This document shows, in pieces, positions 32,123 through 63,048 of a stretch of 64,000 nt of DNA (within the stretch, counting starts at the first letter, position 1; each line of letters starts with the position of its first letter). A program made the position numbers and the translations under genes. This stretch comes from Candidatus Omnitrophota bacterium (GTDB lineage: Bacteria > Omnitrophota > Gorgyraeia > B26-G9 > JBDRCZ01): positions 2,234 to 66,233 of the forward strand of contig JBDRCZ010000019.1 in assembly GCA_043821285.1 (NCBI GenBank), written 5' to 3'. The notes under the pieces were generated by a model. That model was not told the DNA's origin. It worked only from the letters and a program-made list of their open reading frames with translations, and did no database searches.

Positions 32123-32228
32123 TGCTGGAAAACGCAAGTATTTTCCAATTATCCGCCTTACTGAATGCAAACACATTTTTTTATCGCGAAGCGGATAAAT
32201 GATTATTTTTGCGTAGCAAAAATAAAAA

Positions 32229-33979: not shown

Positions 33980-34056
33980 TGGTGGGCGCAATAGGACTCG
34001 AACCTATGACCTCTCGGATGTGAACCGAACGCTCTAACCAACTGAGCTATGCGCCC
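33980..34056 (-). tRNA. tRNA-Val (anticodon CAC), CCA encoded
   Basis: The reverse complement GGGCGCATAGCTCAGTTGGTTAGAGCGTTCGGTTCACATCCGAGAGGTCATAGGTTCGAGTCCTATTGCGCCCACCA folds as a cloverleaf. Anticodon loop is TTCACAT. Confidence 0.85.
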
Positions 34057-34129: not shown

Positions 34130-34205
34130 TGGTGGGCCCACAAGGACTCGAACCTTGGACCAAGAGATTATGAGTCTCCTGCTCTGCCAACTGAGCTATG
34201 GGCCC
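34130..34205 (-). tRNA. tRNA with anticodon CAT: elongator tRNA-Met or lysidine-modified tRNA-Ile2 (not initiator type). CCA encoded.
   Basis: The reverse complement GGGCCCATAGCTCAGTTGGCAGAGCAGGAGACTCATAATCTCTTGGTCCAAGGTTCGAGTCCTTGTGGGCCCACCA. It has a G1-C72 pair and no three-GC anticodon stem, so it is not an initiator. Confidence 0.8.
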
Positions 34206-43317: not shown

Positions 43318-43971
43318 CTACGTCTGTGGAGATTCCACTTCAAAAGAAATTACGAGATTAAAAGTAAGTTCTTCACGGTCAATTTTTTCGGGGATTGCCG
43401 GGAATGGTGTCGCCGCTTCAATGCTTCTTATTGCCGCCTTTTGTAAAAACTGATCTGAAGCTGAATTCTCTTCGATTATCTGTACACAATGTAACTGGCC
43501 TTTTTTCGTAATCGTAAACGTAAGAAAGATATCTCCGCGCTTGAATTGTGCCGGATAGATAACATTGCGGCGGATTTTTTCACGAATATTGGAATAATAA
43601 TCCAAATAAATTTTAGATTCTTTCAGACTTTGCGCTTGCCTTTTGTAAAATTCGTTTGTCTCATCTCTGATATTAACCTTTTTTGTTCCGGGGACCGAGC
43701 GTTTGTAAACTGAGACGGTATGCTTTTTTGTGGTGATCGCGGTAGATTTTTCTTTTTTTGGTAAATATATCGGCTCGGACGGCAACGCTGTCTTTTCTGC
43801 TGGCAATGATAGCTTATCCTGAGAAGAAATAAGATATGTTACTTCAATATCCGCTATTTTAGCTTTTGGAAAAAAATATTTGCTGCAGAACGCTCTGGGT
43901 AAAAACAAGGTTGCATGTAAACACATCGAAATTAGCAGTGCCGCTTGAAATGTCTTATTTTGTTCAATCAT
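43318..43971 (-). CDS. TonB-family energy transducer (C-terminal TonB domain protein)
   Basis: 217 aa. An N-terminal TM (ALLISMCLHATLFL), a Pro/Lys-rich linker, and a C-terminal YPAQFKRGDIFLTFTITKKGQLHCVQII...F motif typical of TonB_C. Confidence 0.6.
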   Translation of the reverse strand: MIEQNKTFQAALLISMCLHATLFLPRAFCSKYFFPKAKIADIEVTYLISSQDKLSLPAEKTALPSEPIYLPKKEKSTAITTKKHTVSVYKRSVPGTKKVNIRDETNEFYKRQAQSLKESKIYLDYYSNIREKIRRNVIYPAQFKRGDIFLTFTITKKGQLHCVQIIEENSASDQFLQKAAIRSIEAATPFPAIPEKIDREELTFNLVISFEVESPQT

Positions 43972-44019
43972 TTATTATTCACAATTTTCAATTACGTTCT
44001 ATTTTTTAGAACAGATGGT

Positions 44020-44090
44020 AAATATCCGGAAAATGCGGTGCATTTTCCGTGCATGAATATCCTCAAGAGCAAGTTCTTGAGGATATTCAT
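44020..44090 (-). terminator. Tandem hairpins just after the HD-GYP gene stop: a perfect 38-nt palindrome ATGAATATCCTCAAGAGC|GCTCTTGAGGATATTCAT (44053-44090), plus CGGAAAATGCggtGCATTTTCCG (44025-44048)
   Basis: Seen directly in the sequence. The second hairpin resembles hairpin 1 of the ~150-bp repeat element. Confidence 0.55.
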
Positions 44091-45629
44091 TTAGTCTTCC
44101 TTTTGCACCTCGGTAATAAGTTCTGGATTTTTATCTAACACCCTTAAAAATGCTTCGACAACTTTAGGATCAAACTGTGTGCCGCTGCATTTCTTAACTT
44201 CCGACATTGCCATATCCTTAGTAAAACCTGTTTCGCGATACGGACGGACGGTTACCATTGCGTCAAAACTATCGGCAACACTAATTATCCGTGCACCAAC
44301 TTTTATCTCTTCACCTTTAAGACCAGTGGGATACCCTTGCCCGTCATATCTTTCATGATGCTGCTTTACAAATTCAATAACATCACCTAAAAAAACCAAC
44401 GGGCTTAAAATTTCTGCGCTCTTTCCTGGGTGTAATTTTATCTCCGCCCACTCTCCGGGAGTTAATTTGTCGTTTTTGGTCAAGATATAATCATGCACGC
44501 CAATCTTCCCTAAATCATGCAGCTGACATGCCAGTCGGATATTTTCTGTATCTTTTTCACCTAGTCCCATCTCCTTGGCAATCTCAACAGCATACCTGGT
44601 CACGTGTTCTGAATGATTACGCGTATAATGATCTTTGGCATCAATCGCTGAAGTCAATGCCTTGACGGTCCGAATATAAGTTTCCGTAAGCGAAGTATAT
44701 AACCGGGCGTTTTCAACCGCAATTGCCGCTTCATTCGTCAACCCTTTGATAAATCCAAAATCTTCTTTAGTAAACGGTTCTCCGGACCTTTTATTATTAA
44801 CGTTAATCACGCCAATAACGTCATTCTTTACGGTTAAAGGGACGCTAATAAAAGAATGGGTATAGTATTGCTCTTTATTGGTTGGAGTAAATCTTGTCTC
44901 TTGCGCAAGATCTTCGACTAATATCCCTTCGCTATTTTCAATAATCCAGCCGGAAATTGACTCTCCTATTTTAATTCTGGTATTACGAATAATGTCCTCG
45001 GTTAACCCCCGGGCCGCCTGAATGGATAATTCCTGCCGGTTTAGATCAAGCAATAAAATCGCGCATTTTTCAATATCTAAAACCGTACAAATTCTATCCA
45101 CGATCGTTTTTAAAACTTCATCCAATTTTATACTGGATAAAATATCGCGGCTGATACTAAAAAGAAGCGATAACTCTTTAGTTCGCTCCTTAACCTTTTC
45201 TTCTAATTTGACATTTTGTTCTTCTAATTCCTTCATCAGTCTTTTATTCATAAACGATAAATTCTGCAAGTCAACCGCTCTTTTTATCACTAAAGAAATC
45301 TCTTCAATATTAAAAGGCTTGGTAATATAATCATAAGCACCTTCTCTTATTGCCGATTGGATAGTTTCGAAAGAAGGGTAACCGGTCATGATGATAACAA
45401 TTGTGTCTGAATTAGCAGATTTTACTTCCTGCAACACCTGTATTCCATTAATATCCGGCATTTTAAAATCTACCATAACAACATTGTAATTATCTTCTTT
45501 AAACGTTTTCAAACCGTCACGTCCGGAGTTAGCATAGTTAACAATATAGCCCCGGTCTTGTAATAAATCTCTCAAAAATTCACACATCACTAATTCATCA
45601 TCAATAATCAGAATCTTTGCCGCTGACAT
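44091..45629 (-). CDS. Response regulator with receiver + GAF + HD-GYP (c-di-GMP phosphodiesterase-type) domains
   Basis: 512 aa. Receiver ILIIDDE...VMVDFKMPD. A GAF region. HDLGKIGV and HHERYDGQGYP are the HD and GYP motifs. Confidence 0.8.
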   Translation of the reverse strand: MSAAKILIIDDELVMCEFLRDLLQDRGYIVNYANSGRDGLKTFKEDNYNVVMVDFKMPDINGIQVLQEVKSANSDTIVIIMTGYPSFETIQSAIREGAYDYITKPFNIEEISLVIKRAVDLQNLSFMNKRLMKELEEQNVKLEEKVKERTKELSLLFSISRDILSSIKLDEVLKTIVDRICTVLDIEKCAILLLDLNRQELSIQAARGLTEDIIRNTRIKIGESISGWIIENSEGILVEDLAQETRFTPTNKEQYYTHSFISVPLTVKNDVIGVINVNNKRSGEPFTKEDFGFIKGLTNEAAIAVENARLYTSLTETYIRTVKALTSAIDAKDHYTRNHSEHVTRYAVEIAKEMGLGEKDTENIRLACQLHDLGKIGVHDYILTKNDKLTPGEWAEIKLHPGKSAEILSPLVFLGDVIEFVKQHHERYDGQGYPTGLKGEEIKVGARIISVADSFDAMVTVRPYRETGFTKDMAMSEVKKCSGTQFDPKVVEAFLRVLDKNPELITEVQKED

Positions 45630-45793
45630 TTATAATCTCCCAATCTCTATTAGACAAAATCAAGCATAATAAAAAAATTTTTCTCGTATAGATTACCCTA
45701 TGAAAACCGTAAGGTTTTCAAGCTTTCTCCTTATTATATAAAAATTCTTTTTTCCTTTTGGCCTACATTTTCTTTATTAAAAGAAAATGTCAG

Positions 45794-45824
45794 GTAAACT
45801 TATTGCCGCAGGCAATAAGTTTAC
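45794..45824 (-). terminator. Intrinsic terminator GTAAACTTATTGCC-gca-GGCAATAAGTTTAC followed by a U-rich tract (minus strand) at the end of the CheY-like gene
   Basis: A 14-bp perfect stem. Downstream on the minus strand is CTGACATTTTCTTTT. Confidence 0.6.
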
Positions 45825-46189
45825 TGTTTATTTCTAATTTTGTTAACAATAGCAATAACTTCTGTTACATTAAATGGTTTATGTATACAAGTTACCGCCC
45901 CATTGGTCATTGACTCTTCAAGGGCATGTATCGGCATACTATCCATCATAACCACCGCAGTATTCGGAGTAAGCTGCCTTAACATTTTAAGTGTTTTTAC
46001 CCCATCCATAACCGGCATGTGCACGTCGACAAAAGCAATCGGGAAAAATTTTTCTTTTACAATACGTTCTGCCTCTTTGCCATTATTAACTGTCGTTACC
46101 TTATATCCCTCATCCTGTAAGATATCAATAAATAAATTACGCATTATCTCTTCATCATCTACTACGAGAATTTCTAAACATTTATCCAT
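45821..46189 (-). CDS. Single-domain CheY-like response regulator receiver
   Basis: 122 aa. ILVVDDEEIMRNLFIDIL, FVDVHMP (the phospho-Asp) and a conserved K near the C-terminus. Confidence 0.8.
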   Translation of the reverse strand: MDKCLEILVVDDEEIMRNLFIDILQDEGYKVTTVNNGKEAERIVKEKFFPIAFVDVHMPVMDGVKTLKMLRQLTPNTAVVMMDSMPIHALEESMTNGAVTCIHKPFNVTEVIAIVNKIRNKQ

Positions 46190-46223
46190 TTTTTTCTCCT
46201 CTGTTTTTTGCTATACAGCAAAA

Positions 46224-46616
46224 TCATGATCCCTCCTGTTTGCTCTGTTCTACGGCCTTTTTCATCGCTTCTCTTATCTCATTTATATCAAACGGTTTAT
46301 GAATGCTAGTAACCGCGCCTTCATGTTCTGCCATTTTAAGGAGAAGGTCGGGATAGCTATCCATCATGACAATTGCTGTCTTCGGGCTGATCCGTTTTAA
46401 AGCCGAGAGAGTCTGTACGCCATCCCTTACCGGCATATGTATGTCTATAAAAGCAGCATTGAAAAATGTTCTTTTGGCTATGTCTTCTGCTTCCTTTCCA
46501 TCAGCTGCCGTAACAACATTATATCCTTCTTCTTGCAGTATATCTGTAAAAAGACTGCGCATTACCTCTTCATCATCGACGACTAATATGTTGATATCCT
46601 GCTTTGCTTGTTCCAT
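46224..46616 (-). CDS. Single-domain CheY-like response regulator receiver (paralog of 45821-46189)
   Basis: Start taken at the internal MEQAKQDINILVVDDEEVMRSLF (the ORF track extends to 46655). About 50% identical to its neighbour. Confidence 0.8.
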   Translation of the reverse strand: MEQAKQDINILVVDDEEVMRSLFTDILQEEGYNVVTAADGKEAEDIAKRTFFNAAFIDIHMPVRDGVQTLSALKRISPKTAIVMMDSYPDLLLKMAEHEGAVTSIHKPFDINEIREAMKKAVEQSKQEGS

Positions 46617-46670
46617 AAAAAAATTAAATATGAAAACACGATTTTTTTCATACAATATATCAACAATCAG

Positions 46671-48305
46671 CTATATCTTTGCCGGAGGTAAAAAAATTAT
46701 AAACTTCGTTCCTTTTCCTTCTTCACTCACCACCTCGATTGCGCCCTGATGATCTTTAATAATCTGGTAACTCACCGCCAGTCCTAATCCTGTTCCTTTA
46801 TCTTTTGTCTTGGTTGTGTAAAATGGTTCGAAAATACGGGGAATATCTTTTTCAGGAATTCCCATTCCGGTATCACTGAATTCAATCTTTATTCCCCATG
46901 GTGATTGTTGAATACCTTCATATCGCATGTTCTCCGTCACAATTGTCAAATCACCGCCATCAGGCATAGCCTGCTGGGCATTTAAAATGATGTTCGTAAA
47001 TACCTGTTGCAGCTGGTTTGTTATCCCCATGGTCTTGGATAAATCCGGATCAAGACTGGTTACCAGATTTATATTTTTCAGTTTTAATTGATGTCCAATA
47101 ATCGAAATCGTCTCTTCGATTGCATGGTTAATATCCAGCACTTCCTGCTTAGCAAATATTGGTTTGCGGGAAAATTTAAGCAGGCTTTCGACGATTTTTT
47201 TACAACGGGTTGACTCTCTTTCAATCGATTCGATATATCTATTGCATGCCTTAAATTCTTCTACGCCAAAGTTGGGCCGTTTAAATTTTTCCAGCATAAA
47301 CTGAGAATATCCCAGAATCCCACCCAAAGGATTATTCAGTTCATGGGCGACCCCGGCTCCCAACTGCCCAACCGCAGCCATCTTTGCTGATTGGACAAGT
47401 TGCGCCTGTGCCTCTTTCAATTCTTTAGTGCGTTCCTCAACCTTTTGTTCCAATGTCCGGCTGTAATTTTCTATTTCATTCCGCGACCTTTTGAGTTCGG
47501 CTGTCATCTGATTAAAAGATTTTGCCAGTATACCGATTTCATCTTTCGCGTGCACATTTACCTGATAAGTTAAATCTCCTGCGGTAATCTTTTGTGTTCC
47601 CAGAACTAATTGACGAATAGGTCCAATGATTATCCCGACGAGAAAAAACGTTATGATGATCCCGATTATAATCACGATTGCTGTTAGTAAAATAATCTGA
47701 ATGGTTATGTTTTTTATTTCATTATTTATATGTGCCAAAGAAATTCCGATCTGGGCAAAACCGATTAACTCTTCTTTTACCGTGGTTACCTCTTCAAACC
47801 CCATAAGTTCTATTTCTTCACGACCCAAAAAAATCTGCTTGGTCTTAATCAAAGACATAATATTATACATCGGTTCATTATCCTCGGAAATAAACGGTGT
47901 TAATATTGGTTTAGACATATTTTCTGCATTTTTAATATCTGCGTCCGGCAGCTCAATTGCCCGATTATCTATAGGATTTCCGGATAAAGCCAAAATTTCT
48001 TTTTCGCGGCTTTGTATCAGACAATAGACCACATCCTCTTCTTCTAATAAACCTTCGACCAACATAACCAGCGGTTGTTTATTTGCGGTCAAAACTCCGT
48101 ACTCGCTGTTAACCGCAATATTTTTTACTAAAAATTCCCCTTTATTCAATAAATCTTTTTTGCGATGCCTTATTTCGTTTTTAATATAGTAATAACTTAA
48201 CGTCGCAGACGTTAAGATAATAATTCCCGAGATTGCTAATATGAATTTTGTCGGTAATGCCAGCTTAGCTATTTTCGAACCAGCCATTAATATACTCCTC
48301 TCCAT
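46671..48305 (-). CDS. Sensor histidine kinase: periplasmic sensor domain + HAMP + HisKA + HATPase_c
   Basis: 544 aa. Two TMs flank a ~170-aa periplasmic domain. HELNNPLGGILGYSQ is the H-box. N/G1/G2 boxes GDLTIVTENM...DTGMGIP...GTGLGLAV. Confidence 0.8.
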   Translation of the reverse strand: MERSILMAGSKIAKLALPTKFILAISGIIILTSATLSYYYIKNEIRHRKKDLLNKGEFLVKNIAVNSEYGVLTANKQPLVMLVEGLLEEEDVVYCLIQSREKEILALSGNPIDNRAIELPDADIKNAENMSKPILTPFISEDNEPMYNIMSLIKTKQIFLGREEIELMGFEEVTTVKEELIGFAQIGISLAHINNEIKNITIQIILLTAIVIIIGIIITFFLVGIIIGPIRQLVLGTQKITAGDLTYQVNVHAKDEIGILAKSFNQMTAELKRSRNEIENYSRTLEQKVEERTKELKEAQAQLVQSAKMAAVGQLGAGVAHELNNPLGGILGYSQFMLEKFKRPNFGVEEFKACNRYIESIERESTRCKKIVESLLKFSRKPIFAKQEVLDINHAIEETISIIGHQLKLKNINLVTSLDPDLSKTMGITNQLQQVFTNIILNAQQAMPDGGDLTIVTENMRYEGIQQSPWGIKIEFSDTGMGIPEKDIPRIFEPFYTTKTKDKGTGLGLAVSYQIIKDHQGAIEVVSEEGKGTKFIIFLPPAKI

Positions 48306-48336
48306 AAATTAGTGCCAAAGGCACTAATTTATGGTA

Positions 48337-49299
48337 TCATTCAAAAATATCCCGTGCCGCTTTTAATATCTGTTCAGGAATTTCTATCCCGATCTGTTTT
48401 GCGGTTCTACGATTAACCGATAAGTATAATTTTCTCGGGAGAGTAACCGGTAATTCCCGGGGCATTTTTCCTGACAATACCGCGGCAGCTAATTCACCCG
48501 ACTGTCTGCCAATATCTTCCAGATCATAGCTTATGCTAAATAATGCGCCGGCTTTAACATAACCCGCAGAAAGTCCCATAAAAGGTTTTCTGTGCCGTAA
48601 AGTGGTCAGAATAATGAATTGGGTAGCCTGCAGGGTAAAAATAGTACCATCCGCCACTCCCCATAAAACATCTATTTCTTTTAGCAACTCTTCTAACGCC
48701 TCGGGAACGTTTTTTTCGGAGTAAACCTTTTTTGCAACTAACACCAGCCCCATTTCCTGGACGGTCTTTGCTGCCTCATCGATTAAAAATTCCGTTTCCT
48801 TGGGATTGTAAAGTACGCCAATTTTCTGGGCATTTGGTATAACCTGTTTAATGTTTGTAAACTGGTCTTTTACAGAAAGATCCATCGCGGCGCCAGTAAG
48901 ATTATTTCCTGAAGACTCAAGTGAATCGACAAATCTTAACATCACCGGATTAAGCACTAAAGAAAAAACCACCGGGATATCGGTTGTACTATTTTTTGCA
49001 ATCTCGGTTGCCAATGACCCCAGGGCTAAAATTAAATCCGGTTTTTTTTCGATGATTTTTTTTGCGGCGCGATAATTTTCTGCTTCTGTACCGGCAAAAT
49101 CTAAGGTGATATATTGCGGCTTAATACCTTTTTGTTTAAATACGTTAGTAAACCCCTCCAATGCAATATTAAACGGCGTAACGTTACGGCTTTTAAAAAC
49201 AGCAATTATCGGCTGACCCTCGGCTTGAACAAAGTGAATTGCTCCAATAAAAATAATGAACGTAAATATAAAAAAACACCTGATATTTTTTTCTGACAT
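48337..49299 (-). CDS. Periplasmic substrate-binding protein of the ABC_sub_bind (COG2984/PF04392) family, with no ABC permease or ATPase partner nearby
   Basis: 320 aa with a signal peptide. ILALGSLATEIAKNSTTDIPVVFSLVLNP is shared with the two paralogs at 56503-57483 and 57749-58675. Confidence 0.7.
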   Translation of the reverse strand: MSEKNIRCFFIFTFIIFIGAIHFVQAEGQPIIAVFKSRNVTPFNIALEGFTNVFKQKGIKPQYITLDFAGTEAENYRAAKKIIEKKPDLILALGSLATEIAKNSTTDIPVVFSLVLNPVMLRFVDSLESSGNNLTGAAMDLSVKDQFTNIKQVIPNAQKIGVLYNPKETEFLIDEAAKTVQEMGLVLVAKKVYSEKNVPEALEELLKEIDVLWGVADGTIFTLQATQFIILTTLRHRKPFMGLSAGYVKAGALFSISYDLEDIGRQSGELAAAVLSGKMPRELPVTLPRKLYLSVNRRTAKQIGIEIPEQILKAARDIFE

Positions 49300-49405
49300 G
49301 AAATTTACCTTCTTTTTGTCACTTGCTATTTATTATAAACAATTGACCGGTTCATTTTCAACGAAAATCAGACTGGTTTATATTTTATCAGTAATTACCA
49401 TATAG

Positions 49406-50791
49406 TTATAGTTTTTTTCGTCGTGACCATAATTTATAGGCCGGTATCCCACTTGCGACCAATGCGATGCCGAACAGCGACTCTTGTGGTTTTTGCCCAA
49501 AGACAATAATCACGATAAGAATATTAGACAAAATAAAAATAATCGGGACAAAAGGATATCCCCAGCATTTAAATGGCCTCGGCATATCCGGTGCCTTGTA
49601 TCTTAATATAATTAAAGACACACCCACGAGCACGGAAAACATCGCAATAACAAATGAGGTAAAAATTAAAAGTTGTTCAAATGTTCCTGAAAAAATAAGC
49701 ACGGTAACACAAATCGCCTGTAAGAGTAGTGCCCAATGCGGCGTTATATATTTAGGGTGTAGGTGTGCTATTTTATCAAAAAAAATCTTATCTTTGGCCA
49801 TAGCAAAATAAATTCTTGCGCCGGTCATGATCATTACATTTAAACAACCAAGTATGGAAATTAAAATTAGGATATTAATCGGAACGGCCATCTTGCGTCC
49901 AAAAAGACTTATTGCTGCCAATGCCCCGATATCCAGTACATTCTTCATCTCTTCTAAAGGCAGTGCATAAAGGTAAACACAATTAACTAATAAATAAAGA
50001 CCAATGGTTATAAGTGTACCCAGCAAAAGCGCCAATGGCACGTTCCGCTGGGGGTTCTTAATTTCACTCGCAATATACGTTGCCCCGTTCCAGCCGGAAT
50101 AAGTAAAGATAACAAACATCAGACTCACGGCAAAAGGCCCAATAACAGAATAACCCGCAGTGTAATGCCAAAAATTTTCGTAATTGACCATGGTCCCTTT
50201 TCCAATGGCAAAGGCAAAAATAGATATCAGCAATAACGGCAGTATTTTTAAAACTGTCAATACATTCTCGATAAAACTACCCCACTTAATCCCAATATAA
50301 TTAATATATGTCAAACAATAAACCACCAGTAATCCCGCAAGTTGTCCTTTGTTAATTGAAAAAGAAAAAACATTTCCAATATTTACCGTAAAGATTACAA
50401 AAGAACTGCCTAACCATGGGGAAAAATTGGCCAAATATTTGGCAAAGGCAATACTCGATAAAGCAATCGATGCAGAAAATGACGCGAAAAGGGCTGTCCA
50501 GCCGACAAGGAATCCGATAATCGGTGAATATGCCCGTTTTAAATAAACGTATTCGCCGCCTGAATGCGGCATGGAAGCCGCCAGTTCCGCATAGGTTAGT
50601 GCCCCGGTAAAAGCAAAAATTCCGCCAACTACCCAAGTCAATAAAATAAGAAATCCCGAATCCAGACTTGCGGCTTGAAACCCTGTTGAGGTAAATATTC
50701 CCGTACCAATTATGTTTCCGACCACGACCATAATTGCACCAAATAACCCGATTTTTCTTGCAAATGTTTTTGTGCTGCTCATTCTATTCAT
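49406..50791 (-). CDS. Amino acid/polyamine/organocation (APC) family permease
   Basis: 461 aa with 12 TMs. An N-terminal GIFTSTG-like signature (GTGIFTSTGFQAAS). Confidence 0.8.
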   Translation of the reverse strand: MNRMSSTKTFARKIGLFGAIMVVVGNIIGTGIFTSTGFQAASLDSGFLILLTWVVGGIFAFTGALTYAELAASMPHSGGEYVYLKRAYSPIIGFLVGWTALFASFSASIALSSIAFAKYLANFSPWLGSSFVIFTVNIGNVFSFSINKGQLAGLLVVYCLTYINYIGIKWGSFIENVLTVLKILPLLLISIFAFAIGKGTMVNYENFWHYTAGYSVIGPFAVSLMFVIFTYSGWNGATYIASEIKNPQRNVPLALLLGTLITIGLYLLVNCVYLYALPLEEMKNVLDIGALAAISLFGRKMAVPINILILISILGCLNVMIMTGARIYFAMAKDKIFFDKIAHLHPKYITPHWALLLQAICVTVLIFSGTFEQLLIFTSFVIAMFSVLVGVSLIILRYKAPDMPRPFKCWGYPFVPIIFILSNILIVIIVFGQKPQESLFGIALVASGIPAYKLWSRRKKL

Positions 50792-50807
50792 TCGCCCCTT
50801 TCTTCTC

Positions 50808-53800
50808 TTATAATTCCTCTATTAACTTTTCAATCTGTTGTAACGTTGCTTGCGCCCTTATTCCGTAAATAGAATTCAATTCCAAAGCATCGTTTAAAAT
50901 TTTACGCGCTTCGAGAACTGAGGTTCTGGCACTGGTATAATCTTTAAGTTCTTTTTCAACCCATGCCTTTAAATAATAGCAATCGCCTAAATCTACATAC
51001 AGTTTATATTCATCAGGAGTAATGCGATAGATCTTTTTATAATATTCTATTGCCGTGTTAAAATCTTTTAGCGCATCTTTATTTTGCCCGATTTCTTTTT
51101 TTAATCTTCCCCAGTGATAATAAAGATACCCCAGCGCATCATATCCCGCTACTGAAGTTTCTAAGGTTATCGAATTTGCCAGTTTTACTTTTGCTAACCC
51201 CATATATTTTTCTGCTTCTTTATAGCGGGCATTGACAAACATTAATATAGCATAATTTAAATAAGCACGTCCGAGTTCAATATCATTATAATAAAAATCC
51301 GGCCTTTTTCGATCTGCATCTTTCAAATAGGAAATTGCCTGCTGAAAGCTGGACTTGGCTTCATAAAAATTGCTGTTTTTTATGTATAAATTCCCCCGCT
51401 GTGAATATAAAAAACCTAAGACCAGATATGCAATGTATGGATTTTTATCTATCCCCAGCGCTTCTTTGGCAATATCTATTGCTCCTTCGGTCACTTCAAT
51501 CTTACCGGCTACTTCTTGAAAATAAAGTTTAAGCGTCTGATGTATTTTATGATAATACTCAACTTTTCGCTTATTTTTTAATAAACCGATGTACGAACCG
51601 TAATAAGCCGACATTAGTGGACTCATATCTATTGCTTTTTTCATATATTGAATAGCTAAGGCAATATCGCCCGTATGCTGATAAAATACCGACATTTGCG
51701 CCGGAACCACGGAAAAATAGGGAAAATCTTCCGATGCCTTTTTTAGTGTTTTAACCGCATCTTCTAATTTATTGTTATGGAAATAGGTTAAGGCAAGATA
51801 AAGGTATTGTGCAATATCAGGTTCATTTTTTAATTTCTGTTTGTATATTCTGATTAATTCCAAATGGTTGCCTTGGGGAAAAAGATATTGTGAAACGGCG
51901 CGGTTTATTCTTAAAAATTTTTCATAAACGCCATTATTATAAAACGAGCCAAGATTATATGTCGTATCATATAAAATCAGCAGTCCTTGGATATTTAAAA
52001 CTTTAAACACCTTATCAATGTTTTTGTACACTTCTTGCGAATCAATATACATTAAAACATTCTGTACGCTGACAAGATCGTATGGCGGCCGGAAATTTTC
52101 CGGTAAATTAACCGGCAAATCAGTCAGGATATTTTGTTCTTTAAAGATGATGTGTTCCTTAAAAAAATTCACGTCTTTTATACTATATCCGTTATCCACT
52201 TTTATAAAATATTTCATAATTTTCTGCTTTATTTCTTCGGGAACGCGCAAAAAGGCATCTTCAGGAAAAGTCATTTTTTCCGCAATCTCCACGACCCGCT
52301 GATCATAATCCGTCGCTAAAATATAAAAATCCTTAATCCCCAGCTCAAGCAGTGCCATGGCAAAGGTTAGTGGTTCCTGTCCGGTCGAGCAGGCAAATAC
52401 TTTTAGTTTTAATGGTCGATTTTGCGCTTTTGCTTTTGCCGCCAGTGGTGGTATATACCTCAGGAATTCTTTAACCTCAGTCCAGTTACGGTAAAAATAG
52501 GTACTGCTTAAAGTATAAAACTTTACCGATAAGGAAAAAAGCAATTGATCATCTACTTTATCCAACTGACCAATGCCATTTGACAGTAAATAATTATTCA
52601 GGTTTTCACTCAATTGATATTTATCTTTATCACTTAACTCGATAAAAAATACCGTCTTATACCGCCTTTTGATTTTTTCGGCTAATTGATCATAGGTATT
52701 ATTGTTTAATTTATGATCTTTAAGAACGGTAATATATTCGGCTATTGCCGTATTGATCATTTTTGCCGGTAACAGGCGATCATCCACATGTTCCAATAAA
52801 TTAGCTATGTTATTTAGCACGTTAAAATCATTAATTAAAAAATACCAGTCATAAATTTTGCTCCCATCCTGTTTATATCTGACAAACGGCTTATTTAGAA
52901 ACTTTATTAATTTTTCTTTTGACAGCTCAAAATCTGTTATAAATTCTGTATCGCCTAATACCGCGGGGGCGGTGTAATTATCTAAAGGAGCGGTGATATC
53001 AAACAAAAGATTATAAGGATTTTTTATGGAAACATTTCCCGATACGGCAATCATTCTCTTCGCGGGATTGCTGCCCAAGCGGGCAAGAATACTAACTACA
53101 TTCTTATCGTGCATTAGATCTTTGACCAGCGCATTATCAAAATATACCTTTTCTGCAAATTTGTCCGAGCTCGTAAACAAATGCCGCTTTTGATTAGCCT
53201 GATTGGGTTGGATATCTTTTGCACTTAAGGTATGTGTTAACCAGCTAATTATCTTTTCCTCGACTTCATGCCGGACATCGGAAAGAAATAATCTTGTCCC
53301 GTGTCCCTTTTGATTATATATTTTTAATTCTTTAACCCCTTGATAATTCTCATAAAGATGTTTGCCGGATGCATAGTTTTGTTCTGTTTCATCTAAAAAT
53401 ACTAACAGGCTAATATCTTTTTTAGCTATATTTTTTATCTCGTTTTTAACTTCGACTCCCAGATAATTAAATGCCGGAGACATCAATACCATGCTGCATA
53501 TATTATTAGATACAGCCGCAAGTTGTATCGCAACATTACACCCAAGGCTCGCACCAATAAGCCCAACCCTCTCCAGATCAACGCCCGGCTGCTGCAATAA
53601 AAAATCTCTGGCCGCAGTTGCATCCTTTATCATGTCTTGATATGCGGCATATTTAAATTTTTGCCAATTAATATCCTTGCCTTTTTGCACGTTACTTTGG
53701 CCATGTCCGCGCAGGTCAATTGCCAGCACAACATATCCTTCCTGCTGTAATTTTTGCGCAAAGGCATGCCAATCCTCTTTGCTCCCCTGCCACATATGAA

Positions 53801-54017
53801 AAAGCATCACTGCCGGCCTGCTGTTTGTATCCTGATGAAAATATAAAGTGCCTTTGATAATCACGCTATCACTGGTAGAAAACTCCACGGTTTTTACCGG
53901 ATATTCCATAGAAAATGCCAATCTGGCATTAAAAATAACCAATAACAAAAATATAAATACTACCTGATTAAAATTTTTCACCTTCTCTACTCCTGGCAAT
54001 CGCCCTGAATTCGTCAA
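50808..54017 (-). CDS. Tripartite protein: N-terminal signal/anchor + alpha/beta-hydrolase (dienelactone-hydrolase-like), a central CheR-type SAM methyltransferase, and C-terminal TPR repeats
   Basis: 1069 aa from a TTG. An alternative GTG start at ~53978 has an AGGAG RBS. GASLGCNVA is the GxSxG. KVFACSTGQEPLTFAMAL...ATDYDQRVVEIAEK...YDLVSVQNVLMYID aligns to CheR motifs (xxxACSTGEEPYSxAM...ASDID...FCRNVMIYFD). The C-terminal ~400 aa are TPR-like. Confidence 0.65.
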   Translation of the reverse strand: MTNSGRLPGVEKVKNFNQVVFIFLLLVIFNARLAFSMEYPVKTVEFSTSDSVIIKGTLYFHQDTNSRPAVMLFHMWQGSKEDWHAFAQKLQQEGYVVLAIDLRGHGQSNVQKGKDINWQKFKYAAYQDMIKDATAARDFLLQQPGVDLERVGLIGASLGCNVAIQLAAVSNNICSMVLMSPAFNYLGVEVKNEIKNIAKKDISLLVFLDETEQNYASGKHLYENYQGVKELKIYNQKGHGTRLFLSDVRHEVEEKIISWLTHTLSAKDIQPNQANQKRHLFTSSDKFAEKVYFDNALVKDLMHDKNVVSILARLGSNPAKRMIAVSGNVSIKNPYNLLFDITAPLDNYTAPAVLGDTEFITDFELSKEKLIKFLNKPFVRYKQDGSKIYDWYFLINDFNVLNNIANLLEHVDDRLLPAKMINTAIAEYITVLKDHKLNNNTYDQLAEKIKRRYKTVFFIELSDKDKYQLSENLNNYLLSNGIGQLDKVDDQLLFSLSVKFYTLSSTYFYRNWTEVKEFLRYIPPLAAKAKAQNRPLKLKVFACSTGQEPLTFAMALLELGIKDFYILATDYDQRVVEIAEKMTFPEDAFLRVPEEIKQKIMKYFIKVDNGYSIKDVNFFKEHIIFKEQNILTDLPVNLPENFRPPYDLVSVQNVLMYIDSQEVYKNIDKVFKVLNIQGLLILYDTTYNLGSFYNNGVYEKFLRINRAVSQYLFPQGNHLELIRIYKQKLKNEPDIAQYLYLALTYFHNNKLEDAVKTLKKASEDFPYFSVVPAQMSVFYQHTGDIALAIQYMKKAIDMSPLMSAYYGSYIGLLKNKRKVEYYHKIHQTLKLYFQEVAGKIEVTEGAIDIAKEALGIDKNPYIAYLVLGFLYSQRGNLYIKNSNFYEAKSSFQQAISYLKDADRKRPDFYYNDIELGRAYLNYAILMFVNARYKEAEKYMGLAKVKLANSITLETSVAGYDALGYLYYHWGRLKKEIGQNKDALKDFNTAIEYYKKIYRITPDEYKLYVDLGDCYYLKAWVEKELKDYTSARTSVLEARKILNDALELNSIYGIRAQATLQQIEKLIEEL

Positions 54018-54663
54018 TGTTTTTTTTAAGATTCCTGTCTAATTGTATTGCTCTCCTAAAATCTTTTCCCGCCTTTTTCTTTTCTCTCTGTAAAACATAG
54101 ATCCTGCCCCGGGTAAAATAACTGAATGCATGATCTCTATTCAGTTTAATTGCACCGGATATATCCCGCATTGCTTCATCTAATTTATTTAACTCCATAA
54201 GAATAAGCGCCCGGTTGTTTAAAGAAAAAAAGTTTTCCGGTTCTAACTCGATGGCAATATTGGCATTTTCTAATGCCTTTTCTAATTCATGCAGATTATA
54301 AAATACCCAGGCAAGATTATTATGAACAATATGATCAAGGCGGTTAATCTCTAATGCGCGGTATAAATCTTTTAGCGCCTGGTCATATTTTTCAAGTTCC
54401 GTGTACAAAAAAGAACGTGCAATATATGCACGTATTAACTTCTCTCCGCTATTGTTCTGACCGCGTTCGGATTCAATTATTTTCGTGTTCGCGGCGATCT
54501 TTTGCTCAATATTCGAAATGTTTGGCAGATATTTCCAATTTTTAAAATTTGCGGCAAAAATAACATCCGCTAAGACAAAAACCAAATATACAAATACAAA
54601 TAAACCAATTAATAAATTCCCCTGCCCATTCTCTTCTTCAATTATGTTGCTAATTCCGTTCAC
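53968..54663 (-). CDS. TPR-repeat protein with an N-terminal membrane anchor
   Basis: 231 aa. TM LLIGLFVFVYLVFVL, then several 34-aa TPR-like repeats (ALKDLYRALEINRLD..., ALENANIAIELEPENFF...). Confidence 0.6.
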   Translation of the reverse strand: MNGISNIIEEENGQGNLLIGLFVFVYLVFVLADVIFAANFKNWKYLPNISNIEQKIAANTKIIESERGQNNSGEKLIRAYIARSFLYTELEKYDQALKDLYRALEINRLDHIVHNNLAWVFYNLHELEKALENANIAIELEPENFFSLNNRALILMELNKLDEAMRDISGAIKLNRDHAFSYFTRGRIYVLQREKKKAGKDFRRAIQLDRNLKKNIDEFRAIARSREGEKF

Positions 54664-54689
54664 CCCCTTAAATATGCGAGTTGCGCTGT

Positions 54690-56465
54690 TTAGCCGGCAA
54701 TTTCCGATTCCTGTTTATTATTATCTTCCGCTTCTTCTTTTAATTTAAACCGCTTTACTAAATTTGCCAAACTTGCCGCCATTTTTGATAATTCTTCGGA
54801 TGAAGAAGTCATTTCTTCCATCGATGAGGTTTGCTGCTGGGTTGAAGTTGAAGTTTCCTGCGCTGCGGACGAGCTCTCCTGGGCAATTGCCGCCAATTCC
54901 TCAATTGCCTTAACTACCCCTTGGGTAACCTTAAGTTGTTCCTGGGCTGCGGTTGAAATATCCGTAACCATTACCGCGGTCTTTTCTACGGTAGTAATAA
55001 TCTCACTGAGCGCTTTTCCGGCCCGATTAACCACTTCTCTTCCACTGGTAACTTCTTTTGAGCCCACCTCGATTGTCCCCACTGCCTTACCAATCTCCGT
55101 CTGTATCCCTTTGATTAATCCGCCAATTTTAGTTGTTGCATCCGCTGACCCCTCCGCTAATTTTCTGATCTCCTCCGCGACCACGGCAAAACCGCGGCCG
55201 GTCTCGCCGGCGCGTGCCGCTTCAATCGCGGCATTTAATGCCAAAAGATTGGTCTGGTCAGCAATCTTCGTAATTACTTCCGTAATTTCACCAATTTGCA
55301 GAGAACGTTCATTTAAGGCACGGATTAAATTCGTGGCAATCGTTACAACTTCCGCAATTTTATCCATCTTTCCGACTGTTTCTTCCGTTGCCTCACCTCC
55401 GACTTGCGCCCGGTCCCTGGCTTGCTGTGAGGCCTCGGCTGCATGCTGAGCATTTTCTGTCACTTGCCGTACCGACCCAGACATTTCATCCATAAGCTTA
55501 GATATTTCCCCCATACGTATTGCCTGGGTCGTAACCCCTTTAGATATCTGCTGGATGGTTGAAGAAATTTCCAATGTTGATGCATTCATGTGCTGGGTAA
55601 ATGAAGACATCTCTTGCGCCGAGGAATTTACTTTCTCTGCCGTGTTTCTAATCTGGCCAACAATATGGTGGGTACTTCGAATAAGCGTGTTAAACCCATC
55701 CGCTAACTGCCCAATCTCATCTTTTAATTGAATATTTACCTGTTGGGTTAGGTCTCCTTCTGCCGCGTTCTGAGCTCCTAACAGTAATAATTTAATTGGA
55801 TAAATTAATCTTTTTACCCCGGCAATAGTTACTACCGTACTAATCAGAATGATTATAAGGGTTAACATTATCGTAGTATTAGTGATGCGTTTGGTTAACA
55901 AATCCGTATTTTTAAGAGAGATGCCCACGCGGGCAACCCCGATCTTGCCTTTGCTTGTTTCTTTCAATTCCTTATCTTCCGAAAACAACCCCATTTCCAA
56001 CTCCGAAAATCCTCCGCCAATTGAATACACTGGCACGGTAATATCATATAAAGATTCCCTGTTTTTATTTTCATATACCTCAACAACCGGTTCAGTCGCG
56101 GTTATTGCTTTTGCATTTATTTTACCACCCAATCCCAGTTCTTCCATGCCGCTTTCACTACTTGCTAAAACATTACCTTCTAAATCTTGAGTTATGGCGT
56201 AAACCACGTCATCCTCTTTCATCACCCCATCAATAAGCTTAGAAAGCATTTCGCGGTTGGCAATCAATACGCCATATTCACTGTTATAGGCTAAATTTTT
56301 CGCTAAAGAAAGCCCGCGTTTTCGCAGATCCTCATATGCCTGTTGATTTACATATCTTATAAAATAAAAACTCAAGCTGCTGGCAACAATAATAATTAGT
56401 AAGGCAATTGAAATTACGGCCTTAAGCTGTAATCCGATCCTAAATGTTTTATGAGAAATATCCAT
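54690..56465 (-). CDS. Methyl-accepting chemotaxis protein (periplasmic sensor + HAMP + MCP signalling domain)
   Basis: 591 aa. The highly conserved MCP hairpin tip [31 protein letters not shown]. The N-terminal sensor is homologous to that of the kinase at 46671-48305. Confidence 0.85.
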
Positions 56466-56502
56466 ATATAACCTCCTGCATCAATACGTTTAATTATTAT
56501 AG

Positions 56503-57483
56503 CTACTTAAAAATTTCATCTGCTTTTGATAATACTTTCGCCGGGATTTTTATCCCCATAATATCAGCAACTCGTACATTTATAGCCAGGTCCGGGTCCG
56601 TTGGTAAATCTACCGGAATATCCCCGGGCGCCTCTCCTTTTAACACCCGTATAATCATCTCCCCGGTTTTTCGGCCGATATTTTTATAATTACAGTACAC
56701 GCCCATTAATGCCCCGGCTTTTACAAAACTCGGAGAAAATCCGATAAATGGGATCTTATTGCGTAAACTAAATAGCAGGATAAACTGGATAGACTGAGAA
56801 GTAAAGACCGTTGTATCTACCGTTCCCCAGAGAACATCAATCTTTCCATTAAGCGATTCTATGGTTTTAGGCACATCAGCTTTGGAAGAAACCGGCAGCG
56901 CAACCAATTCTAATCCAAGTTTTTCTGCAGCTTCTTTTGCTTCCTTAACCACTCCTGCGGTTTTATCCCGGTCATAGACAACTCCAATTCTTCGTGCCGT
57001 GGGAATAATTGATTTTATCACCGTAAACTGTGTCTCAACGGAAATATTAATACTAACCCCGGTTACATTGTTACCTGGACGTGTCATGCTATTAACTAAA
57101 CCTTCCTCAAGCGGATTAATCACCAGGGAAAATACTACCGGGATATCAGAGATTTCATTTTTAACGATAATACTTGCCTTTGAGCCAAGGGTTAATATTA
57201 AATCGCTTTTTTTATCTTTAATTTTTCGGGCCATCGCCTGTCCCTGCGGCGTACTATCTTCGAAATTATAATAGGTAAAATTAGGCGTGTATCTATTTTT
57301 TTTCAATATCTCGCCAATCCCTTCCACAATACTCTGATAAGCATTAAGTTCCCGATCGATAAAAACAGGTATGTCCACTTCCGCCGCGGCAAGCGGATTT
57401 ATCATGGATAGTAAAAAACAGAGGGAAAATATAAATAACCGTACACTTTTTTTTCTCAGGTTATTTATCTTCAATAAAACCAT
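56503..57483 (-). CDS. ABC_sub_bind (COG2984) family periplasmic binding protein, paralog 2, adjacent to the MCP
   Basis: Start taken at the internal MVLLKINNLRKK with a signal peptide (the ORF track extends to 57657). ILTLGSKASIIVKNEISDIPVVFSLVINP. Confidence 0.65.
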   Translation of the reverse strand: MVLLKINNLRKKSVRLFIFSLCFLLSMINPLAAAEVDIPVFIDRELNAYQSIVEGIGEILKKNRYTPNFTYYNFEDSTPQGQAMARKIKDKKSDLILTLGSKASIIVKNEISDIPVVFSLVINPLEEGLVNSMTRPGNNVTGVSINISVETQFTVIKSIIPTARRIGVVYDRDKTAGVVKEAKEAAEKLGLELVALPVSSKADVPKTIESLNGKIDVLWGTVDTTVFTSQSIQFILLFSLRNKIPFIGFSPSFVKAGALMGVYCNYKNIGRKTGEMIIRVLKGEAPGDIPVDLPTDPDLAINVRVADIMGIKIPAKVLSKADEIFK

Positions 57484-57748
57484 GGTAACCTCATGCGATA
57501 TAATTACCTGCCGCTTTAAAATCCGCAGACATAGCCCTTGGATGTCAGAAAAACCTTTGTGCTGTACATCGTCTCCGTTTGCTGGCTCGGTTTTTAAATA
57601 ATTGCCGCTTATTAGATAATTACTGCCAAATATATTAAGCACAATCGAGTTTCCCACTTTTTCTTCTCCTGTTTTTCTCTTTTATTTGTAAAAACACTGT
57701 TTTACCCGCACACGAAAAAGTCATTGTGTAAACCCGCGGCGCTGCACT

Positions 57749-58675
57749 TTACTCGACAATTTCCGCCTTATCGATAATTGCCTGAGGTATCAATAAATTT
57801 ATTTTCTCCGCAACCTTTAAATTTAAAACTAAATTAACCGTTTGTGGAGACTGGATGCCAATATCAGCCGGTGTCTTTTCCCCGCTTAAAATTTTATTAG
57901 CAATATCTGCGGCCTGTCTGCCTAAATCTTGACAATCAACATCCAAACTGAATAATCCCCCTTTTTTTACAAAGGTTTTAGCCGGACATAGTAACGGTAT
58001 CTCATTACTTAAACTAAAAAACAGCAATCCTTGAAATACCGTGCTATTTACAACAACCGGGTCGGGAATTACCCAAAAGGCATCGATCTTGTCTTGCAAA
58101 TATTTAATCGTTTTAGAAATCTCTGATTTCGACTCCATCTTTACATCAACAATAGTTAGATCTAAAGCCAGCGCTTCTTTTTTAGCTTCCTTAATTATCT
58201 CGGTAGTTCTTTGCGGATCGTATATCACCCCTACTCTTTTAACCTGCGGGGCGATGTTTTTTAAATGTATCAGTTGATATTTAGGTGCTACGTCTAACCT
58301 CACCCCACAGATATTGTCGCCAACTAAACCATACCGGACAGGATTCACGACCATGCTAAAAACAATCGGGATATTTGAGATATTCAGTTTAGCCAGCTGG
58401 GCGGCTTTGCTGCCAAGGGCAAAAATTAGGCGGGGAGACTGAAACCGGATTCGCTCGATGATATTTTTTCCTTTATTTAAATCTCCGTGCAGCCAATATT
58501 CGGTCGTCCGCCCCTCATAAGCATCATTAAATCCTTTAAGCACCAACGGATAAATACTATAATCCTCACCAACAATAACCGCAACATCCGCGGCATCGGC
58601 TTTAATACACCATACCCCCATTAATACCCATACTAAAAATAAACCGACAATTACTGCCCGCTTTTCTTTTCTCAT
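57749..58675 (-). CDS. ABC_sub_bind (COG2984) family periplasmic binding protein, paralog 3
   Basis: Start taken at MRKEKRAVIVGLFLVWVLMG (the ORF track N-terminal extension to 58801 reads through a repeat element). IFALGSKAAQLAKLNISNIPIVFSMVVNP. Confidence 0.65.
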   Translation of the reverse strand: MRKEKRAVIVGLFLVWVLMGVWCIKADAADVAVIVGEDYSIYPLVLKGFNDAYEGRTTEYWLHGDLNKGKNIIERIRFQSPRLIFALGSKAAQLAKLNISNIPIVFSMVVNPVRYGLVGDNICGVRLDVAPKYQLIHLKNIAPQVKRVGVIYDPQRTTEIIKEAKKEALALDLTIVDVKMESKSEISKTIKYLQDKIDAFWVIPDPVVVNSTVFQGLLFFSLSNEIPLLCPAKTFVKKGGLFSLDVDCQDLGRQAADIANKILSGEKTPADIGIQSPQTVNLVLNLKVAEKINLLIPQAIIDKAEIVE

Positions 58676-58777
58676 CTTCACTCCTTTGCACCATTCCGAT
58701 ATTCCATCATCGTCGAAAAACCTTTGCTTCTCATCAAAACGATAATGAATCTCCCGCTCAGCAAGAGAAGGGGTATC

Positions 58778-58930
58778 TTCATACATGGAAAATGCAATCA
58801 TTTTCCGGTCATCCGCCTAGGCGGATGCAAGCGAAATTGTCTTCGCTTCCGCCACGGCGGATCTTCGACAATTTCGCAAAAAACAAAAACCTTTTACCCT
58901 CTAGCTTGCTACCGGGAATACTCAAGTTTA
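58778..58930. repeat. Copy 2 (inverted) of the ~150-bp structured repeat
   Basis: The reverse complement of 23626-23777 at about 90% identity. Its middle hairpin is replaced by a different self-complementary sequence, CATCCGCCtaGGCGGATG. Confidence 0.7.
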
Positions 58931-58967
58931 TCCACGCACAAAACATGTTCTGTATCCGGGATGTTTT

Positions 58968-60926: not shown

Positions 60927-60985
60927 TCTTGTCTCCTGGCAAATATAACCGCATTGTCATATTTGCCGGTAAAATTATCTGAAGC

Positions 60986-62839: not shown

Positions 62840-63048
62840 TTTTAGCCTCCCATTTTCTTGATATCAAAATTCAATCCGTAAGTTTAGCTAAATAAATGCC
62901 TCGACAACATGTTGCGCGGCATTTTATCCGTTTTTAGCAGCAATATCCCTAATTTTAATTATACAAATATTTTTTCTTTTGTCAACATTATAGTTACAAT
63001 AATTTTATAGTTGATTTCTGATTATATTAGATTTATAATCAAAGCATT

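Follow-up and report, generated by a model that had tools for sequence, protein, structure and literature searches.

Conserved pairing of PF04392 binding proteins with single-Cache sensors points to a probable TonB-dependent sensing relay in an Omnitrophota genome

Why would a bacterium encode binding proteins of an ATP-binding cassette (ABC) importer family directly beside signalling genes, with no importer nearby? The question arises from a 64,000-nucleotide stretch of a Candidatus Omnitrophota genome (assembly GCA_043821285.1, contig JBDRCZ010000019.1, positions 2,234 to 66,233; hereafter the window), in which a sensor histidine kinase (HK) as well as a methyl-accepting chemotaxis protein (MCP) each adjoin a gene for a periplasmic binding protein of family PF04392 (ABC_sub_bind, COG2984). 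A preliminary description of this DNA had read the arrangement as one binding-protein-dependent sensing system feeding two outputs, with a third binding protein and two TonB-dependent receptors (TBDRs) as a possible uptake side; every gene that it named is present, on the minus strand and in the place given for it. The explanation that we favour, with moderate confidence, is an envelope-spanning relay in which an outer-membrane receptor would supply a dedicated binding protein, which would in turn act on a Cache sensor domain; we infer its contacts, ligand flow, docking site and phosphotransfer partners.

The HK (46671-48305, minus strand) consists of a first transmembrane segment (TM1), a Cache-like domain (approximately residues 42-201), a second transmembrane segment (TM2), HAMP, HisKA and HATPase_c. 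By Pfam, the MCP (54690-56465, minus strand) has TM1, a Cache-like periplasmic domain, TM2, HAMP (40.4 bits) and MCPsignal (160.3 bits). The N-termini of the two proteins are 35% identical over 298 aa (BLASTP, E=3e-38), and the periplasmic parts alone, with the TM segments and HAMP removed, are still 34% identical over 163 aa (E=8e-23); the likeness is therefore not confined to HAMP, and the paralogy earlier proposed for the two sensors holds. A PF04392 gene lies directly upstream of each, as had been observed: SBP1 (48337-49299, minus strand) 31 nt 5' of the HK gene, and SBP2 (56503-57483, minus strand) 37 nt 5' of the MCP gene. A third family member, SBP3 (57749-58675, minus strand; the open reading frame (ORF) possibly starts at 58801), carries a signal peptide. 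Against a family cut-off of 25.9 bits, SBP1, SBP2 and SBP3 score 155.5, 194.7 and 135.9 bits, and the binding proteins match the solved relatives 3lkv, 3lft and 6hni at profile E-values of 7e-49 to 7e-44. Export signals, read by eye at their N-termini, are hydrophobic segments with Ala-rich ends (FVQA, PLAA, IKADA).

The pairing recurs far beyond this genome. When one genome of each species was scanned for a pattern based on the sensor motif NSEYGV, 29 loci were retrieved, from metagenome-assembled genomes (MAGs) labelled Omnitrophota, Ignavibacteria, Zixibacteria, Deltaproteobacteria/Syntrophobacteraceae, Acidobacteriota, Sumerlaeota, Cloacimonadota and Clostridia, that is, at least eight phyla or classes. 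In 27/29 of these loci and in both window copies, the sensor gene is immediately preceded by a PF04392 gene on its own strand, and the two genes overlap by 4 nt in 15 loci, which suggests translational coupling. Independent look-ups of family members in metagenomes found the binding protein upstream in five of seven cases (P0015, P0132, P0099, P0123 and P0063), bringing the overall count to 34 of 38 sensor genes with a PF04392 gene directly upstream. The association of sensor and PF04392 protein proposed in the preliminary description thus extends across lineages, as a dedicated signalling binding protein predicts. Moreover, the identity matrices of binding proteins and sensors (29 pairs) correlate at r=0.94, a value reached by 0 of 2000 permutations, which shows that the two genes are inherited as a unit. 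HK, hybrid HK and MCP outputs all occur with this unit, and the sensor domain is found with an HD-GYP protein as well; by this exchange of outputs, the unit behaves as an input module. Such gene arrangements have precedent, as binding-protein genes whose products stimulate sensor kinases are typically encoded beside signalling genes (PMC8050422), and a 2024 paper states that many binding-protein-dependent kinases are encoded next to the binding-protein gene (PMC11113362).

The family of sensor domains is large. A sensor-region profile (alignment A3), searched exhaustively against 1.84 billion cluster representatives, matched 4367 proteins at E<=0.001, of which 1542 reach E<=1e-10; a word-indexed protein search with a two-sequence profile had returned nine matches only, mostly fragments, and a tblastn comparison of the sensor domain with plasmids found nothing. 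Among the 78 full-length top matches, 66-67 are histidine kinases, 11 carry a receiver (REC) domain and 7 are MCPs. One of the metagenome entries, P0132 (L033, 147-3482), was considered as a natural fusion of binding protein and sensor kinase and rejected: it lies on a 1.8x long-read contig with fragmented downstream genes, its junction is the C-terminus of the binding protein read through into the start codon of the sensor, and the fused topology puts the Cache domain in the cytoplasm. The fusion is probably an assembly artefact with a lost stop codon, and lends no support to the explanation favoured here.

PF04392 is a transporter family: the gene of a canonical member shares its operon with those of a permease and an ATPase, and solved members bind Trp, Tyr or Phe (PMC10443332). 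Together with two of the seven independently sampled sensor-family members (P0141 and P0113), which have no upstream binding protein, this would suit ordinary transport with co-regulation: the PF04392 proteins would serve a distant ABC importer and never touch the sensor, which would regulate uptake or simply be co-expressed with it. We consider this unlikely, in the first place for want of a transporter. Pfam finds no ABC_tran or BPD_transp family in the coding-strand window ORFs of at least 100 aa, and phmmer queries with the permease and ATPase of canonical PF04392 operons from two plasmids, of Pseudomonas aeruginosa and of Salinivibrio, match none of the window ORFs of at least 70 aa at E<=0.01; the reported absence of an ABC permease or ATPase from the window was thus borne out by both approaches. 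A homologue of the canonical permease is likewise absent from 29/29 loci, with flanks of up to 10 kb on each side, and the sole ABC ATPase matches there are FtsE. The earlier label of 'orphan' binding proteins is accordingly sound for the window and the flanks of about 10 kb in 29 loci, and extends to that range only. Further points against ordinary transport are the position of the binding-protein gene, which where paired always directly precedes the sensor gene, often with a 4-nt overlap, the recurrence of the identical pair with different outputs, and the replacement of canonical residues in a distinct subfamily, described below.

The FtsE matches deserve a separate word. ABC ATPase-like ORFs divergent from the binding-protein gene in Ignavibacteria loci were taken up as a candidate cognate transporter and rejected, being FtsE of an FtsE-FtsX-M23 operon. 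This FtsE-like gene stands just upstream of the binding-protein gene, on the opposite strand, in L002, L004-L006, L010, L015, L019 and L026 (Ignavibacteria, Zixibacteria), and by Pfam the L005 neighbourhood holds FtsE, FtsX, an M23 peptidase and DNA polymerase III delta'. The conserved neighbourhood is probably unrelated in function to the module.

How do the sensor-linked binding proteins compare with those of importers? They share 35-47% identity among themselves and 19-30% with two canonical transporter proteins. SBP1 is closest to the binding protein of locus L001 (47%) and SBP2 to that of locus L014 (43%); SBP3 is 28% identical to SBP1 and closest to sensor-linked binding proteins of other loci (34-36%). 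The cut-off of the TrpX equivalog model (NCBIfam NF041285; 390 bits) is not reached by any of the three SBPs, which score 129.2, 168.5 and 115.3 bits. Furthermore, the sensor-linked proteins have conserved residues of their own: the Asp of the canonical TDP motif is replaced by Asn117, and the Arg/Asn of the canonical VERGA/VxNGA motif by Ala250 (SBP1 numbering). Judged by these sequences, they are a subfamily of their own within PF04392. The Asn117 and Ala250 substitutions hint, weakly, that the ligand may not be a free amino acid; a search for an Rfam riboswitch upstream of the receptor genes, as a hint to the ligand, found none.

Another alternative would be a ligand-independent accessory subunit, in which solute binding is lost and the PF04392 protein is a constitutive sensor-tuning partner, as WalH/WalI are for WalK or LapG is for LapD. 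This we regard as very improbable: most family-wide PF04392 motifs are kept in the SBPs, suggesting an intact two-lobe binding protein, and a conserved outer-membrane transporter partner (24/29 loci) implies a transported ligand. Single-lobe relatives of PF04392 exist: several solved chains of 164-189 residues (PDB 6k1w, 8wxm, 8wgk and 5z6v), deposited as 'ABC-type uncharacterized transport system periplasmic component-like protein', cover one lobe of the profile only, at positions 139-261.

The next question is where a binding protein could act on the sensor. The sCache_4 model (PF09984; cut-off 22.1 bits) scores 25.4 bits on the MCP, just over the cut-off, and 19.2 bits on the HK, under it; across the 78 full-length family members, sCache_4 is found in 45 and sCache_3_2 in 25 (E<=0.001). 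No solved structure for the sensor domain is detectable by sequence. An AlphaFold2 model of HK residues 41-202, built from a 47-sequence alignment (pLDDT 90.5, pTM 0.84), shows the PDC/Cache order of elements (a long helix at the N-terminus, a sheet of five strands, a helix at the C-terminus), placed between the two TM helices, and on this model we are confident that the domain is a single PDC/Cache fold. Two stretches hold the near-invariant residues, namely the motif NSEYGVL and, in the last strand (strand 5), a G...SL segment; NSEYGVL is the sole near-invariant motif and in the model occupies the turn that joins helix 1 to helix 2. Judged by the order of the secondary-structure elements, this turn should lie at the membrane-distal end of a PDC domain, and in that position it would be a plausible docking site for the binding protein.

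In PDC domains, the usual ligand site is the region between strands 2 and 3. The structural relatives of the modelled domain include CitA and DctB, which bind small ligands directly, and the Cache domain might here, too, be the real ligand sensor, with the binding protein shuttling or buffering ligand to the Cache pocket or to a carrier such as an APC permease. A gene for an APC-family amino-acid permease, a secondary carrier (49406-50791, minus strand; AA_permease_2, 209 bits), indeed lies between the two sensor modules of the window. We nevertheless hold direct sensing by the Cache domain to be improbable, since the turn from helix 1 to helix 2 and strand 5 are the most conserved parts, rather than the stretch between strands 2 and 3, and the middle of the domain, the usual PDC ligand site, is the most variable region and about 30 residues shorter in some members. 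No APC permease was noticed at the corresponding position in related loci, whose neighbours were partly annotated, and the link of the permease to the module is uncertain.

The gene neighbourhood is conserved on the side of the outer membrane, too. A TBDR gene lies within the flank in 24/29 genome loci. It is usually upstream of the binding-protein gene, and mostly directly so, in loci labelled Omnitrophota, Deltaproteobacteria, Acidobacteriota, Cloacimonadota and Clostridia; in L020 it is downstream of the sensor gene, and in Ignavibacteria and Zixibacteria loci a receptor of about 900 aa with a CarboxypepD_reg domain is encoded a few genes away. Three loci with a binding protein have no receptor, two of them being ended by a contig edge. 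In two metagenome loci, a Phenol_MetA_deg outer-membrane barrel takes the receptor's position. The TBDR-binding protein-sensor order of the window, where the string ends in an MCP, recurs with a kinase in L001, L021, L022 and L024. The window encodes two receptors, TBDR1 (60986-62839, minus strand; 617 aa, Plug and TonB_dep_Rec_b-barrel by Pfam) and TBDR2 (58968-60926, minus strand; 652 aa, Plug and barrel), which are 29% identical; by Pfam, neither has an STN signalling extension. For both, the best NCBIfam match is the TOL_0244 family, at scores under the cut-off (TBDR1 162.8 bits against 645). TOL_0244 itself is a receptor induced by alkanes, with 40% similarity to OmpS of Alcanivorax (PMC6304351).

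Some of the related loci add detail to the outer-membrane side. In L034/L035 (3715-4914) and the P0123 locus, the Phenol_MetA_deg barrel gene is directly 5' of the binding-protein gene and is itself preceded by a cytochrome-c-like gene; the output of L034 includes a REC-guanylate-cyclase protein and a class II phosphodiesterase, a gene content that suggests cyclic nucleotides other than cyclic di-GMP (c-di-GMP). Additionally, the Ignavibacteria and Zixibacteria loci L002-L007, L010, L012, L013, L015-L019 and L026 carry a conserved trio with the module, consisting of the receptor of about 900 aa with CarboxypepD_reg, a protein of about 885 aa without a Pfam match and a PorV-like outer-membrane protein, which may be a surface capture complex.

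What do the two sensors of the window control, and do they form one system? They stand in a co-directional run of 14 minus-strand genes (43318-62839), transcribed in the order TBDR1, TBDR2, SBP3, SBP2, MCP, TPR protein, hydrolase-CheR-TPR fusion, APC permease, SBP1, HK, REC, REC, REC-GAF-HD-GYP and a TonB-like protein. The HK gene is followed 3' by two single-domain response regulators, REC (46224-46655, minus strand; Response_reg 80.4 bits) and REC2 (45821-46189, minus strand; 83.6 bits), and by a REC-GAF-HD-GYP response regulator (44091-45629, minus strand; Response_reg, GAF, HD_5 and HD, with the motif HHERYDGQGYP), a predicted c-di-GMP phosphodiesterase. In L001, an orthologous HK stands in the order receptor, binding protein, HK, REC-GGDEF, REC and REC-HD-GYP, which supports c-di-GMP as the output of the HK module; to judge from its neighbours, the HK most likely controls c-di-GMP breakdown.

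The MCP gene is followed by a gene for a TPR protein of 231 aa (53968-54663, minus strand; TPR_1, TPR_2 and related families) and one for a fusion protein of 1069 aa (50808-54017, minus strand), in which an alpha/beta-hydrolase (Hydrolase_4/Abhydrolase_1, residues 66-190) precedes CheR (residues 505-682) and C-terminal TPR repeats. The window contains no CheA or CheW, only this CheR-TPR fusion. L038 has the order receptor, binding protein, MCP, a 422-aa protein without a Pfam match, CheA/CheW, CheB, REC, REC and CheR-TPR, an order that speaks for a chemosensory output of the MCP module and links the window's CheR-TPR protein to it; on this gene-order evidence, the 1069-aa fusion is a probable adaptation enzyme for the MCP. 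A hydrolase ahead of CheR is unusual, and CheR-TPR fusions are known from related loci too. The annotated TTG start of the fusion ORF overlaps the upstream TPR gene by 50 nt, so that the true start may lie later. The downstream genes thus fit both outputs foreseen in the preliminary description, c-di-GMP turnover and chemotaxis.

Two other parts of that description are not supported in the form given there. The HK sensor domain and SBP1 both have their nearest relatives in L001 (an Omnitrophica MAG), and the MCP sensor domain and SBP2 both have theirs in L014, a locus of an Omnitrophota MAG with a kinase as its output. Because each pair is closest to a foreign locus and not to the other pair, these sequences mark SBP1/HK and SBP2/MCP as two old, separate modules rather than one sensing system with two outputs, and the two probably sense different ligands. 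Nor do SBP3 and the two receptors stand apart as an uptake side: receptors are conserved in the sensing module itself (24/29 loci), and SBP3 is part of the MCP gene string, since TBDR1, TBDR2, SBP3, SBP2 and MCP are co-directional with gaps of 37-292 nt (TBDR1-TBDR2 59 nt, TBDR2-SBP3 292 nt, SBP3-SBP2 265 nt, SBP2-MCP 37 nt), their co-transcription being a candidate only.

Put together, the relay that we favour would run as follows. Ligand would pass the outer membrane through a TBDR energised by TonB, a TonB-like protein with a C-terminal TonB domain being encoded by the last gene of the string (43318-43971, minus strand; TonB_2 29.7 bits, TonB_C 25.0 bits). In the periplasm, it would be captured by a dedicated PF04392 protein, for which no ABC importer is encoded nearby. 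This protein, loaded or unloaded, would dock on the single-Cache domain, probably at NSEYGVL, and docking would change the signalling state of TM2 and HAMP. In the first module (SBP1-HK), phosphotransfer to the two REC proteins and the REC-GAF-HD-GYP phosphodiesterase would then change the level of c-di-GMP, while the second (TBDR1, TBDR2, SBP3, SBP2, MCP and CheR-TPR) would feed a chemosensory pathway.

Several points weigh against this relay. The Cache domain might itself bind ligand, and a transporter could be encoded elsewhere in the genome, the absence covering the window and the flanks of about 10 kb in 29 loci. Two of seven independent family members, P0141 and P0113, have no upstream binding protein. 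As the retrieval pattern was built on NSEYGV, the genome loci sample one subfamily, the one that carries the motif. Finally, a correlation of identity matrices is expected for any co-inherited neighbours and is not specific to contact.

Signals for transcription in the string were sought by pattern. Intergenic gaps are mostly 15-120 nt, with 191 nt before the HD-GYP gene. A perfect sigma-70 consensus (TTGACA, 16 nt, TATAAT; 12/12) lies at 62958-62985 on the minus strand, 119 nt 5' of TBDR1, and a sigma-70-like site matching at 11/12 positions lies at 49332-49361 on the minus strand, 33 nt 5' of SBP1; both are pattern matches and candidates, the former only a candidate because promoter-like sites in the region are no more numerous than in shuffles. 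A 15-bp hairpin (45793-45825, minus strand) spans the stop codon of REC2, with a T-rich stretch a few bases later, and is by pattern a possible terminator before the HD-GYP gene; a 17-bp hairpin just past the HD-GYP stop codon (44053-44090) is followed by no T-rich stretch on the coding strand. Given these two hairpins, the HD-GYP gene may be a transcription unit of its own. Upstream of TBDR1, the intergenic region of about 200 nt that holds the perfect consensus is shared with a divergent partial gene (63049->64000, plus strand; more than 317 aa, N-terminal TM anchor), which is cut off by the 3' end of the window and has no match in Pfam.

The rest of the window is of a different kind. Its first 31 kb are mostly a polysaccharide-synthesis cluster (524-31158, minus strand) with glycosyltransferases, Wzy, Wzx and Wzz/Wzc-like genes, and also two radical-SAM/SPASM enzymes, two FemAB-like Acetyltransf_6 proteins, a PrpF-family isomerase, an ATP-grasp enzyme and a GNAT protein, a gene set that suggests an unusual sugar or peptide decoration. 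Housekeeping and cell-envelope genes occupy 32-43 kb, among them RNase P RNA (class A, 198.5 bits; 32224-32594, minus strand) and two tRNA genes (33983-34056 and 34133-34205, minus strand). The 3' end of an RNase H-like ORF (32515-33000) and the 5' end of the RNase P RNA share about 80 nt.

How does the proposed relay compare with known systems? Binding-protein-dependent sensing is itself an established principle, with LuxPQ, TorTS, ChvE-VirA, AioX-AioS, NspS-MbaA, and MBP-Tar and its relatives as examples, and a 2021 review states that kinase-linked binding-protein genes sit with signalling genes and chemoreceptor-linked ones with transporter genes (PMC8050422). In LuxP-LuxQ, TorT-TorS and ChvE-VirA, too, kinases are under the control of a dedicated periplasmic binding protein (PMC8050422), of a family different from that seen here; a full-text search of that review for PF04392 found no mention. 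LuxQ has tandem PAS-like domains, in contrast to the single Cache of the present module. The periplasmic sensor of TorS, unlike that Cache, is a helical domain. Moreover, LuxPQ, TorTS and ChvE-VirA have no conserved TBDR partner, whereas the module here has one.

For c-di-GMP, the nearest parallels are NspS-MbaA and ScrB-ScrC, in which, as proposed here, a binding protein encoded with signalling genes controls turnover of the messenger (PMC8050422). In those systems, the binding protein (families SBP_bac_8 and SBP_bac_3) acts directly on a membrane GGDEF-EAL enzyme; here, a PF04392 protein would act through a histidine kinase on an HD-GYP regulator (REC-GGDEF in L001). For chemotaxis, MBP-Tar, GBP/RBP-Trg and DppA-Tap likewise sense through a periplasmic binding protein, as proposed for the MCP module, and their binding-protein genes lie among transporter genes, the proteins doing double duty (PMC8050422). 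In the window, L027 and L038, by contrast, the binding-protein gene is directly 5' of mcp with no transporter nearby, and the receptor domain is a Cache instead of the four-helix bundle of the MBP-Tar group. Canonical PF04392 ABC importers (TrpX type; PDB 3lkv, 3lft, 6hni) share the fold family of the SBPs, which differ in having no permease or ATPase nearby, in TrpX scores of 115-168 against 390 bits, and in conserved substitutions of their own. Signalling that begins at an outer-membrane TonB-dependent protein is also known from FecA/FecR/FecI. Unlike receptors of the FecA type, those here are without an STN extension, and the signal would pass via a soluble binding protein; no window ORF scanned, and thus none in the string, matches the FecR or sigma-70_r2/r4 families.

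The closest published architecture, by description rather than by sequence, is PahS-PahP-PahK-PahR of Cycloclasticus sp. P1, whose consecutive genes encode receptor, binding protein and histidine kinase, of 687, 318 and 771 aa (PMC10570129, PMC8547461); the three-part layout and the proposed logic are the same. PahS is reported to hand its ligand, a polycyclic aromatic hydrocarbon, to PahP, and loaded PahP to activate PahK (PMC10570129). The likeness has limits: PahK is said to have no periplasmic sensor domain, whereas the HK and MCP here have a Cache, and PahR is a GacA-type DNA-binding regulator, whereas the regulators here are REC-only and REC-GAF-HD-GYP proteins.

A three-part relay of this kind has thus already been published. 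New in relation to the reviewed systems are PF04392 as a binding-protein family and its partner sensor domain, and also a chemoreceptor with its own dedicated binding-protein gene and a conserved outer-membrane transporter; literature searches on PF04392, COG2984, ABC_sub_bind and sCache_4 returned no description of this pairing. More broadly, and with less confidence than we place in the relay itself, we entertain the idea of a widespread, unnamed envelope module in many, mostly uncultivated phyla, in which a TBDR or Phenol_MetA_deg barrel would deliver a scarce or hydrophobic ligand to a PF04392 protein and on to a Cache domain with interchangeable kinase, chemoreceptor and cyclic-nucleotide outputs, PahS-PahP-PahK being its only studied member.

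If this is true, energised outer-membrane uptake would be coupled directly to chemotaxis and c-di-GMP without a sigma/anti-sigma pair, and chemoreceptors would gain dedicated binding proteins of their own. Should the relay itself hold, PF04392 would join the binding-protein families known in signalling. Annotations everywhere call the family an ABC transporter substrate-binding protein, and the present subfamily would be mis-annotated, as its members would serve sensors and not importers. Furthermore, the Cache sensor family, with its 4367 cluster representatives, would gain a testable input mechanism, and the conserved gene pair offers many natural pairs for modelling and ligand screening. 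With sensing that starts at an energised transporter of the outer membrane, 'cell-surface signalling' would then extend beyond the FecA/FecR/extracytoplasmic function (ECF) sigma type and link up with the single experimental report, that on PahSPK.

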